Part shown: positions 62,597 through 64,000 of the stretch, one piece after another | Position numbering within the stretch: the first letter of the stretch is position 1 | How the letters are laid out: each line of letters starts with the position of its first letter | DNA from: Bacteroidales bacterium | GTDB taxonomy: Bacteria > Bacteroidota > Bacteroidia > Bacteroidales > VadinHA17 | Assembly (NCBI GenBank): GCA_025454815.1 | Contig: JALONR010000005.1 | Span: forward strand, 14,134-78,133 | DNA: 64,000 nucleotides | Direction: 5' to 3' | Position numbers and translations under genes: made by a program | The notes under the pieces: generated by a model | Told to the model about the DNA's origin: nothing | Databases searched by the model: none | Seen by the model: only the letters and a program-made list of their open reading frames with translations

Positions 62597-63055
62597 TTAC
62601 GGTTTTCTTTTCTGAAGTTTCGGGTGTATCTCCAGCAGTAACGGCATCGCAGCAGTGCCGTACCACTGATACATCTCAGTGACAAAAATCCCGTTTGTGA
62701 CTGTCGGATCACCCCTGACCAGTTCCTCTGCCTCTTCTATTGTTCTGACATCAGACAAAAACAGTCCGCGGTACTGGTTGTCGTTGGCTGAAAAAGGCCC
62801 GGCTGTCACCAGCTTCCCCTCTCCCGCAAGTTTATCCATATTTGAGAAGTGTCCCCGGAACAGACTGTCACGCAGTTCCTTGTCCTCAATTTTTGCAGGA
62901 CCAGATTTCAGGATCACCAGGACATAGGTTTTCATTCCGAGGTCATCAGCACCGAGTTTCGCCGCAAGCGCCGGGTCATATCCGGGTTGTTCTTCCTGTG
63001 AGAAAACCATAAGTGAGGAAGTAATGAACAGAGCTGCTAAAAGGATTCTTCTCAT
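62597..63055 (-). CDS. Exported YciI family protein
   Basis: Signal peptide; YD..LA..LGAD..GMK.Y, GHF.NM..LA..GKL..AGPF, DP. Confidence 0.85.
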   Translation of the reverse strand: MRRILLAALFITSSLMVFSQEEQPGYDPALAAKLGADDLGMKTYVLVILKSGPAKIEDKELRDSLFRGHFSNMDKLAGEGKLVTAGPFSANDNQYRGLFLSDVRTIEEAEELVRGDPTVTNGIFVTEMYQWYGTAAMPLLLEIHPKLQKRKP

Positions 63056-63181
63056 AACTCAAATGTTAGATGACACATAGAATAACAAACAATATTCTTT
63101 TAAGTTTTTCAGGATCAAAAATGAGTCTTAAGAATTTGGATTATATTTGCAGCCGCTATGCCCGCAGGCTACAGCGAGTCA

Positions 63182-63268
63182 GGAGAGATGCCAGAGTGGT
63201 CGATTGGGGCGGTCTCGAAAACCGTTGTCCGGGCAACTGGACCGAGGGTTCGAATCCCTCTCTCTCCG
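63182..63268 (+). tRNA. tRNA-Ser (anticodon CGA)
   Basis: Acceptor GGAGAGA/TCTCTCC plus G73, anticodon loop CT-CGA-AA, long variable arm GTCCGG-GCAA-CTGGAC, T arm GAGGG-TTCGAAT-CCCTC; CCA not encoded; TATATTTG promoter at 63142. Confidence 0.98.
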
Positions 63269-63461
63269 CAACTGATAATACAGGCCGTACTGCTGGAAGG
63301 CAGTACGGCTTCTGTTTTTTTAGAACTTCGCCGAAGGAGCTTGCTCATGAAGCGAAGGAATGAAAACAGAAGTCCATGCGCCCCGCGCATGCCTGTATTG
63401 TCAGTTGCATGTTCCCCAACAAGGGATAACGACTGCAGGGAGTAATCCCTCTCTCTCCACA
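63268..63461 (+). other. Structured 191-bp tRNA-linked module ending in a duplicate of the tRNA 3' end
   Basis: Direct repeat AATCCCTCTCTCTCC at 63253-63267 and 63444-63458; 18-bp closing stem 63268-63285/63391-63408 enclosing three sub-stems. Confidence 0.75.
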
Positions 63462-63472
63462 GACAAGATCAT

Positions 63473-63507
63473 TAATCGCTTGTATATTAATATATTACAA
63501 GCGATTA
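63473..63507. repeat. AT-rich inverted repeat after the duplicated tRNA end
   Basis: TAATCGCTTGTA-N11-TACAAGCGATTA, perfect 12-bp arms. Confidence 0.75.
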
Positions 63508-63591
63508 TTTTATATTTCATTCATGATTACATACAATAATAGAGTATGACTAACTTATACTTGGGCCTATTTTCCCATTCTCCCAGGTATG

Positions 63592-64000
63592 TTAAACTTT
63601 TGTCAATCGATCTGAGATCATTTTTGATGAAACGGCCTTATTAAAAGAATTACCTCCTTCACAATGTATCCCTACTACTTTCCCAGTTTCAACATCTAGT
63701 ATTGCTGACCCCGAATTCCCCCCTAATGTTGTGCAATCATGATGGATCATATTGCCATTTTTGCTCACTATTCTTCCAGGCGCTATTCGTTTAACATCAT
63801 AGATATCTCCGAAAATCCTCTTCATCACCTGCTCAATCCTTGGGGATACCCGGGAATCTTTCCAGGGATAACCGACCGTAACAATAACATCGTCTATTGA
63901 GGAATCGGCATTGAGTTCAAGCGGTTCGATATGTTCATCAAGTCTAATCCTGAAAAATGCAATATCTGGTCCCGGGAGTGGCTCAATATACAACGTTTCA
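63592..64000 (-). CDS. Trypsin-like serine protease (C-terminal part, runs off right edge)
   Basis: Frame open to the window edge (ETLYIEP..GPDIAFF, catalytic Asp), VGYP, HDCTTLGGNSGS (catalytic Ser), VVGIH. Confidence 0.88.
   Translation of the reverse strand, partial: ETLYIEPLPGPDIAFFRIRLDEHIEPLELNADSSIDDVIVTVGYPWKDSRVSPRIEQVMKRIFGDIYDVKRIAPGRIVSKNGNMIHHDCTTLGGNSGSAILDVETGKVVGIHCEGGNSFNKAVSSKMISDRLTKV

Follow-up and report, generated by a model that had tools for sequence, protein, structure and literature searches.

Directly behind the tyrT gene of E. coli lies a unit of about 180 bp (rtT) that has a copy of the tRNA 3' end at its boundary, is co-transcribed with the tRNA and can occur in tandem. 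To our knowledge these tyrT repeats belong to one locus in one lineage, and neither a four-way junction nor a T-arm-matched hairpin nor covariation has been reported for them. A duplicated tRNA end is also the textbook signature of island integration driven by an integrase. A further point of comparison is the attC site of integrons, whose core sites, R'' (RYYYAAC) and R' (GTTRRRY), stand at the ends of a palindrome. Here we describe a module behind a tRNA-Ser gene of an uncultured Bacteroidales bacterium. It resembles the tyrT/rtT unit, the closest known case, in being also about 180 bp long, in its place behind a tRNA and in being bounded by a tRNA end; it differs from it in belonging to a class-wide family found behind many tRNAs and tmRNA, and in carrying a terminator inside the module.

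The stretch of DNA that we analysed (hereafter the window) comprises 64,000 nucleotides, positions 14134-78133 of contig C5 in the source assembly, a genome of 3.6 Mb that is 92.5% complete and is labelled G000; other G-numbers denote the genomes compared with it, and C-numbers the contigs within each genome. Near the end of the window, at 63182-63269 on the + strand, ARAGORN calls a tRNA-Ser gene with the anticodon CGA (Rfam tRNA, 54.9 bits), in which CCA is not encoded. The final 15 bases of this tRNA, which extend from T-loop position 58 through the acceptor stem, are found again at 63444-63458, and the window holds this 15-mer exactly twice, at 63253 and 63444; dinucleotide shuffles of the window gave a mean of 0.02 matches, with two or more matches in 0/100 shuffles. 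Extended by three further bases the repeat is 17/18 identical. Copy 1 (63253-63270, + strand) runs from tRNA position 58 to the 3' end, plus CA, and lies within the working tRNA, and copy 2 (63444-63461, + strand) agrees with it at 15/15 positions, then has A for G, then CA; the spacing between them is about 176 bp. A first-pass annotation, made by a model from the sequence alone, had placed the duplicated tRNA-Ser end at these very coordinates, correctly, and the shuffles put it far above chance.

The same annotation called the module between the repeats ORF-less, which is right as far as real genes are concerned, although mechanical ORFs of 73-97 aa do span the tRNA and the module. These are its sole ORFs, and since they are mechanical and cross the tRNA we rejected the possibility that the module is coding DNA. 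Behind copy 2, an inverted-repeat search found an AT-rich hairpin followed by a T-run (63473-63517, + strand), whose 11-nt loop keeps it from being called by the terminator scan. This hairpin is probably the native trailer and terminator of the tRNA-Ser gene, pushed downstream by the module.

On the + strand, the minimum free energy fold of 63268-63461 is a four-way junction (-91.6 kcal/mol, z = -9.7, equalled in 0/200 shuffles), which reproduces, with the same coordinates, the P1-P4 junction drawn in the first-pass annotation. The minus strand, whose folding had been suggested there as a check, is stable as well (-84.4 kcal/mol, z = -6.4). The sequence shuffles and the folding shuffles together led us to reject a chance origin of repeat and fold. 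In the following description all features lie on the + strand. The 5' strand of P1 (63268-63285) begins at the discriminator base, and its 3' strand (63391-63408), found by the inverted-repeat search, the fold and covariation, closes the junction; the helix is 18 nt long with 94% complementarity. P2 (63285-63321) comprises a GC-rich hairpin (63285-63308) and a U-tract (63309-63321), and its 13-pair stem (7 GC pairs) followed by CTGTTTTTTT has the form of an intrinsic, Rho-independent terminator; hairpins with U-tracts of this type are found across 44 aligned copies of the module. P3 (63309-63372) pairs the U-tract arm 63309-63318 with an A-tract arm, 63363-63372 (10/10 complementary), and has an inner helix (63326-63331 with 63352-63357), a purine-rich internal loop and a tip, GAG-CUUG-CUC, at 63337-63346, where a tetraloop takes the place of the GAGC-TT-GCTC pairing read at first. 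P4 is a hairpin at 63375-63391; both it and P2 were picked up by the terminator scan, and on the minus strand a T-rich run follows P4, a weaker terminator-like site that points towards the tRNA.

Beyond the junction come a C-rich linker (63409-63422), for which an alternative small hairpin with the 5' strand of P5 is a candidate pairing, and the tail hairpin P5 itself (63423-63449), on whose 3' strand repeat copy 2 begins (tRNA positions 58-63). The tail had first been drawn as a short arm, AGGGA-GTAA-TCCCT; family-wide, the tail hairpin is the longer 63423-63449 helix. Its ends read GGGAT(C/A)AC and GTAATCCC, and it forms a 12-level helix that matches an acceptor plus T-arm minihelix in length. 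In 44 copies the order of its elements is T-stem-like pairs, a C.A mismatch, two pairs (one of them covarying), tandem G.A and a small loop closed by GC. A cmscan of 62900-64000 against Rfam 15, with E-values up to 10, passes the tRNA alone and leaves all else inside 63270-63461 far below threshold, so that this search, also proposed at the outset, matches the module to no Rfam family.

We built a covariance model (R1; 188 positions, 64 pairs) from copies of this module. R1 recovers the known sister-species copies at 44-100 bits and finds eight full copies in the source genome, together with one truncated and one decayed copy. The full copies lie behind the tRNAs Ser-CGA, Ser-GGA, Met, Cys, Pro-GGG and Pro-CGG, behind tmRNA and, on C25, behind a displaced tRNA 3'-end fragment that adjoins an integrase gene; the decayed copy belongs to Ser-TGA, and a ninth full copy, behind tRNA-His, was recognised by eye. 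Within the taxonomic family of the source, 94/101 genomes and 19/20 genera have R1 matches, and laxer filters give 11-16 matches per genome in five genomes. When matches in five other genomes were examined, 28/29 adjoined a tRNA called by ARAGORN and the 29th an evident tRNA-Met 3' end, the tRNAs being Ser (four anticodons), Pro (three), Met, Arg, Asp, Gly and Val. Altogether the family occurs behind at least 12 tRNA species plus tmRNA.

Outside this taxonomic family but within its order, R1 with strict filters matches only 6/149 genomes. R1 under-detects modules. The P5 motif is present in 150/401 genomes across the phylum, a reversed control pattern in almost none, and ten loci bearing the motif in other families of the class Bacteroidia include seven with a tRNA, five of which have the whole P1-P5 architecture, with about 135-140 nt of module after the tRNA. 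Positions 63268-63461 are one copy of a Bacteroidia-wide family of modules, roughly 160-200 nt long, that stand exactly at the 3' ends of tRNA and tmRNA genes. This multi-copy attachment to many tRNAs and tmRNA had not been foreseen in the first-pass annotation.

All copies begin within a few bases of the discriminator and share one architecture: P1, P2 with its U-tract, P3 (U-tract/A-tract, CUUG tip), P4, the C-rich linker and P5. Their sequences are far more variable. In sister species the same sequence variant is found at 75-91% identity in several places, namely after the tRNA-Ser(CGA) gene itself, after two further tRNA-Ser genes of G003, as the second unit in G006 and, in G004, at a distal position 6 kb downstream of the tRNA. 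At the same site, most other congeners have a like architecture with a largely unalignable sequence, and the sequence of P1 is wholly different between copies. Full-text searches of the literature found no description of such a tRNA-linked element, and by these and the Rfam searches the family is so far undescribed. Among the candidate RNAs that Fremin and Bhatt (2021, PMC8040213) describe in Bacteroidetes in their survey of RNAs of the human microbiome are palindromic, terminator-like ones, HMP2_1032 (near TonB), HMP2_4205 and HMP2_1065; by their descriptions, these three might overlap the module family.

Homologs being abundant, covariation could be assessed as the first-pass annotation had recommended, and every helix of the module covaries. 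A MAFFT alignment of ten copies, fitted to no structure, has compensatory changes at 22/62 predicted pairs. In a large alignment of 69 rows aligned to the model, which includes some reverse-strand and partial matches and in which the fitting favours structure, 93.2% of cells pair, compared with 62.2% in shuffled rows and 39-48% when the partner is slid. All 64 modelled pairs vary on both sides in these rows, and the covariation score is 0.56 vs 0.05-0.07 in the slid controls. Helix by helix, changes on both sides are seen in 16/16 pairs of helix 1 (P1), and covariation in 10/10 pairs of helix 2 (P2), in helices 3-6 (P3), in 8/8 pairs of helix 7 (P4) and in helices 8-9 (P5). G000, G005 and G014 have copies that share both the tRNA in front of them and the YCII gene further upstream; these copies carry compensated differences in P1, P2 and P4, which points to selection acting in place. 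The early claim that the module goes beyond a mere terminator or att scar is well supported by these abundant homologs and covarying helices and by the lack of an Rfam match.

The alignments also hold a strand signal. In 50 forward full-length copies, G.U combinations outnumber A.C by 106 to 40 (binomial p = 4e-8, a value that is overstated, the sequences being related), and the tip of P3 reads GCUUGC in 37/44 less redundant aligned copies. The G.U excess, the conserved CUUG tetraloop and the tandem G.A pairs are sequence evidence that the + strand may experience RNA-like selection, and they lend support to one half of the initial interpretation, a structured tRNA-trailer RNA. Part of the G.U excess could stem from the T residues that the U-tract requires, or from strand-biased mutation, which would weaken the case for a trailer. 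The conserved C.A mismatch of P5 on the + strand becomes a G.U pair if read on the minus strand.

The tail of the module is matched to its host gene. The 3' strand of P5 has the sequence of the tRNA that the copy itself follows, from position 58 through the first T-stem bases, the 5' strand is complementary to it, and the base of P5 accordingly differs with the tRNA. In a minority of copies the tRNA copy reaches the 3' end or up to 12 nt beyond it; such long repeats occur in the window copy, at Met and Pro-GGG in the source genome, at Ser-GCT in G126 and in copies in G014 and G019. They measure 15-28 nt and start at position 58 in 7/7 inspected cases. Most copies keep the P5 part of the tRNA copy alone, so that the acceptor part looks like a decaying footprint and P5 like the part that is kept. 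We know of no mechanism that gives every copy a tail matching its own tRNA.

Several described classes share some of these properties. Like attC sites, the modules are imperfect palindromes that vary in the middle and are conserved at the ends, their structure is more conserved than their sequence, arrays occur and foreign genes are flanked. In contrast to attC sites, the P5 ends misfit the R''/R' consensus, neither an IntI-like gene (judged by PF00589) nor attI is adjacent, the target is the T-loop of a tRNA, and a large four-way junction with a terminator precedes the module's hairpin. An integron attC site was therefore rejected, on the core sites and on the adjacent integrase or attI, the four PF00589 genes of the source genome being on other contigs. 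As in a CIME, the module lies without recombination genes between att-type direct repeats of the tRNA 3' end, here at 63253 and 63444; unlike a CIME, it has about 176 bp between the repeats, a covarying fold and many copies per genome at different tRNAs, class-wide. A CIME derived from a known autonomous element was dismissed too, there being no integrase at the window copy, at nine related loci or at 29 further loci.

With MITEs and REP/BIME elements the module has in common that it is short, non-coding, multi-copy and palindromic and can act as a terminator; it differs from them in that the P1 sequence is not conserved, the repeats vary between 15 and 28 nt and no Y1 transposase was found in the source genome. 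The placement of copies behind a tRNA, tmRNA or tRNA-end fragment in 8/8 cases (source genome) and 29/29 cases (five genomes) does not fit a MITE. Finally, tRNA 3' ETS RNAs are functional RNAs from the trailer of a tRNA precursor, as an RNA made from the module would be, but those are short, unstructured, located upstream of the terminator and without a tRNA-end copy.

Our preferred reading, which we hold with moderate confidence, is that a tRNA-end-specific insertion module has turned into the structured 3' trailer and terminator of a tRNA or tmRNA gene, its fold being kept as + strand RNA. The module would have entered by recombination at the T-loop; the native tRNA end (63444-63461), displaced by this entry, would now lie downstream, as would the native AT-rich terminator (63473-63517). 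The module would be transcribed from the tRNA promoter as a 3' trailer, with most transcripts ending at P2, and read-through RNA would fold into the four-way junction and P5. The fold may then be under selection for tRNA expression, providing fail-safe termination both ways and/or a defined structure for processing or stability. The inserting enzyme would not be encoded beside the module. The trailer-RNA and mobile-element readings are not exclusive and can both be true.

P2 is a good terminator, so most transcripts should be without P3-P5, which counts against this reading. Two metatranscriptome studies provide contigs from relatives, with 10-14 differences: X20 (168 nt) covers 63242-63409 and X24 (153 nt) covers 63242-63396. 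Both span the tRNA T-arm, P2 and the U-tract and end near the end of P1, and the flanking protein-coding DNA has almost no depth in the two runs. These contigs give a weak hint of read-through RNA, as they give neither strand nor ends and carry-over of DNA is possible.

Alternatively, and we regard this main rival as possible if rather unlikely, the module is a selfish, non-autonomous mini integrative element, in which folded single-stranded DNA or a cruciform is the recombination substrate and the terminator is merely a by-product that makes insertion harmless. P5 would here mimic the tRNA T-arm, and a Xer-like or other tyrosine recombinase encoded elsewhere would exchange strands at position 58, following an attC-like logic. 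Such an element is favoured by the good folding of both strands, by tRNA-end repeats with a left edge fixed at 58 and a variable right edge, by the 5'-truncated copies and tandem arrays of tail units, and by three signs of movement at the tRNA-Ser site: an empty site, the turnover of variants, and accessory DNA between module tails.

The empty site is seen in a metatranscriptome contig, X19 (156 nt), which joins 63270 to 63473 via 11 other letters; its tRNA part is without mismatch, its 63473-63513 hairpin has two mismatches, and the module and one repeat are missing. Empty-site reads had been named in the first-pass annotation as something to look for, and this contig indeed shows the tRNA joined to the downstream hairpin without the module, although a loss of the module by deletion between the repeats, and not the ancestral state, could also account for it. 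A contig from an RNA run has another joint, 63271 to 63440, with a 21-nt side. In a second wetland DNA run (X2) no contig covered 63305-63445. No circle junction of the module was seen. In G004, the homologue of the AT-rich hairpin segment at 63473 comes after a different module variant, so that the X19 contig, the source genome (variant X) and G004 (variant Y) present three states of one site: empty, X and Y. The order of variants at this tRNA is swapped as well, X being beside the tRNA with a truncated Y behind it in G003, and Y beside the tRNA with X distal in G004.

The accessory DNA becomes apparent on comparison with G022, which is syntenic with the source genome but has a copper-ATPase gene directly after the module. 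The source genome has 3.8 kb extra there, comprising the second repeat, the hairpin, a trypsin-like peptidase gene, a 471-aa coiled-coil gene, truncated modules and a hydrolase fragment. The peptidase gene, whose 3' part occupies 63592-64000 on the minus strand and which runs to 64548 past the window, is the first gene of a 3.1-kb accessory insert that ends with two 5'-truncated module copies (C5:80645-80789), followed by a degenerate tRNA-end copy. A look past 64000, to the contig end, had been expected to reveal more copies, a third tRNA-end repeat and an integrase or nuclease; the two truncated copies are there, but no third full repeat, and no integrase or nuclease is encoded from the module to the end of C5. 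A search of 200 other genomes of the taxonomic family did not find the 471-aa gene, from which it follows that foreign DNA lies between the module tails.

The accessory pair itself (minus strand, window 63592-64000 and C5:77725-80097) encodes a 318-aa trypsin-like peptidase, with a match to Pfam Trypsin_2 and with PADLOC matches to NACHT and RT-protease defence models, in both cases to their protease parts, and the 471-aa coiled-coil protein, which has no Pfam family; the two may be a defence-like pair. Distant relatives of the 471-aa gene are rare and stand beside a protease homolog in 3/7 metagenome loci. A tRNA or module is present at 0/7 of these loci, and we therefore rejected the insert genes as a module-tied cassette. 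At C5:80962-81303 (about window 66829-67170, past the window) an ORF covers only positions 63-160 of the Bact_hydrolase profile (160 positions); this gene, next to the truncated module copies, has apparently lost its 5' part.

An integrating element mobilised in trans, the other half of the initial interpretation, finds support in the empty site, the variant swaps and the tRNA-end repeats, but not in the gene content nearby, which includes no integrase or nuclease. Recombinase genes are absent from the 20 ORFs at nine related loci (0/20) and from the 29 ORFs downstream of 29 modules in five genomes (0/29), all of which are ordinary genes. The source genome has four tyrosine recombinase genes (PF00589), all on contigs other than C5; two encode proteins of roughly 300 aa, which could act in trans on a mini-element, and one of the four lies about 1 kb from the C25 module copy. 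In this genome (92.5% complete) there are no matches to the Y1 transposase (PF01797) and none to reverse transcriptase (PF00078). We accordingly set aside an IS200/IS605-type PATE or REP/RAYT element, which needs a Y1 (HUH) transposase, and a retron msr-msd RNA, which needs a reverse transcriptase. No autonomous element carrying P1-P5 was found.

At one locus (L045, G008:C3, 4130-4400, minus strand) the C-terminal remnant of a tyrosine integrase is accompanied by an arm-like repeat and by the T-arm/3' end of tRNA-Ser in a diverged copy, and all this is flanked by two nearly identical copies of module plus tails. Here, then, a classical island is inserted at a module-bearing tRNA. Here and at the C25 copy the module stands on the native side of the island's att site.

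Against a selfish mini-element we note that no copy has a linked recombinase, be it among the downstream ORFs, at the related loci or up to the end of C5. Mobility selection alone would not maintain the compensated changes seen at the same tRNA and upstream gene, nor does the excess of G.U over A.C on one strand favour this reading. The loss of the acceptor part of the repeat in most copies makes them look old and resident, and the misfit of the P5 ends to the integron consensus also counts against it.

A bolder version, which we consider unlikely, would make the family an unrecognised class of Bacteroidia mobile element, an RNA- or ssDNA-structured module of about 180 nt that homes to the T-loop of any tRNA or tmRNA gene its tail hairpin matches. 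Such a module would rely on a host recombinase and T-arm mimicry, without an enzyme of its own, and could bring cassettes such as the 3.1-kb protease insert; this would amount to an integron-like cassette system that is anchored at tRNA genes and whose target can be reprogrammed. Should the tail hairpin really steer insertion to the matching tRNA, this would be a new principle of target choice.

It seems improbable to us that the module is a stand-alone trans-acting small RNA cut from the tRNA precursor, with a 5' end made by the tRNA 3' processing enzyme and a 3' end made by a cut that P5, as a tRNA-like minihelix, would direct (compare 3' ETS RNAs or rtT). The very stable fold and the minihelix length of the 12-level P5 would suit such an RNA, and so would the library contigs X20 and X24 with their ends near the end of P1, but contig ends are not RNA ends. 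Moreover, the helices hold no conserved sequence fit to be a shared target-binding site, a conserved single-stranded target site is lacking too, and most copies have not kept the acceptor-like part of the tail. Very unlikely, finally, is that a classical integrase-driven island decayed to a CIME-like att scar, with attP arms left after loss of integrase and cargo: the textbook tRNA-end duplication is present, arm-like repeats and integrase starts follow tRNA-Ser in G017, G002 and G026, and the G008 remnant between two module copies and the integrase gene about 1 kb from the C25 copy are in keeping with it, but independent remnants would not share one covarying architecture class-wide at at least 12 tRNA species and tmRNA, the G008 and C25 modules, being on the native att side, behave as a resident trailer and not as an island arm, and conserved arm-type repeats were not seen inside modules.

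If the reading as a tRNA-end-specific module turned trailer is true, several tRNA genes and the tmRNA gene per genome would bear an unannotated structured element in a major class, to which many Bacteroidia of the gut and the environment belong. The terminator of the tRNA would come from this element, which may also shape tRNA processing and would mark a hot spot for the build-up of foreign genes. A large family would be added to the catalogue of structured non-coding elements, and duplicated tRNA ends met in annotation would not always be scars of integrase islands.

Other tRNA genes of the source genome carry trailers of different build. Behind tRNA-Lys-TTT (C25:239-313), tRNA-Asn (C37:6699-6773) and tRNA-Gln-CTG (C88:42613-42686) there is a second, short trailer type, in tandem, in which a terminator hairpin is followed by about 60 nt of conserved sequence, itself holding a small hairpin, and then by 23 nt copied from the 3' part of the tRNA, with the whole T-loop among them; a similar conserved stretch also comes after modules in G056. 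At and downstream of tRNA-Arg-ACG (C60:20595-20669) we found 2.5 tandem copies of a 94-nt mini-module without the four-way junction; in it, a terminator hairpin with its U-tract leads into a P5-type hairpin, and 20 nt of the tRNA 3' end are copied after that. Tandem tRNA-like pseudo-units occur at tRNA-Lys-CTT (C56:9736-9809) and tRNA-Ile (C83:185-259), and in these a 7-bp hairpin with a CUUG loop stands in place of the anticodon arm.

P5-type hairpins also form arrays of their own, with a 102-nt period in G371 (C8:61993-62420 and C32:60-381) and a 55-nt period in G078 (C26:257835-258179); in the part of the G371 C8 array that was examined, up to the contig end, a tRNA is absent. In another family of the class (L181, G486:C1), a P5-type hairpin lies 84 nt after tRNA-Tyr and before tRNA-Gly, within a Thr-Tyr-Gly-Thr cluster.
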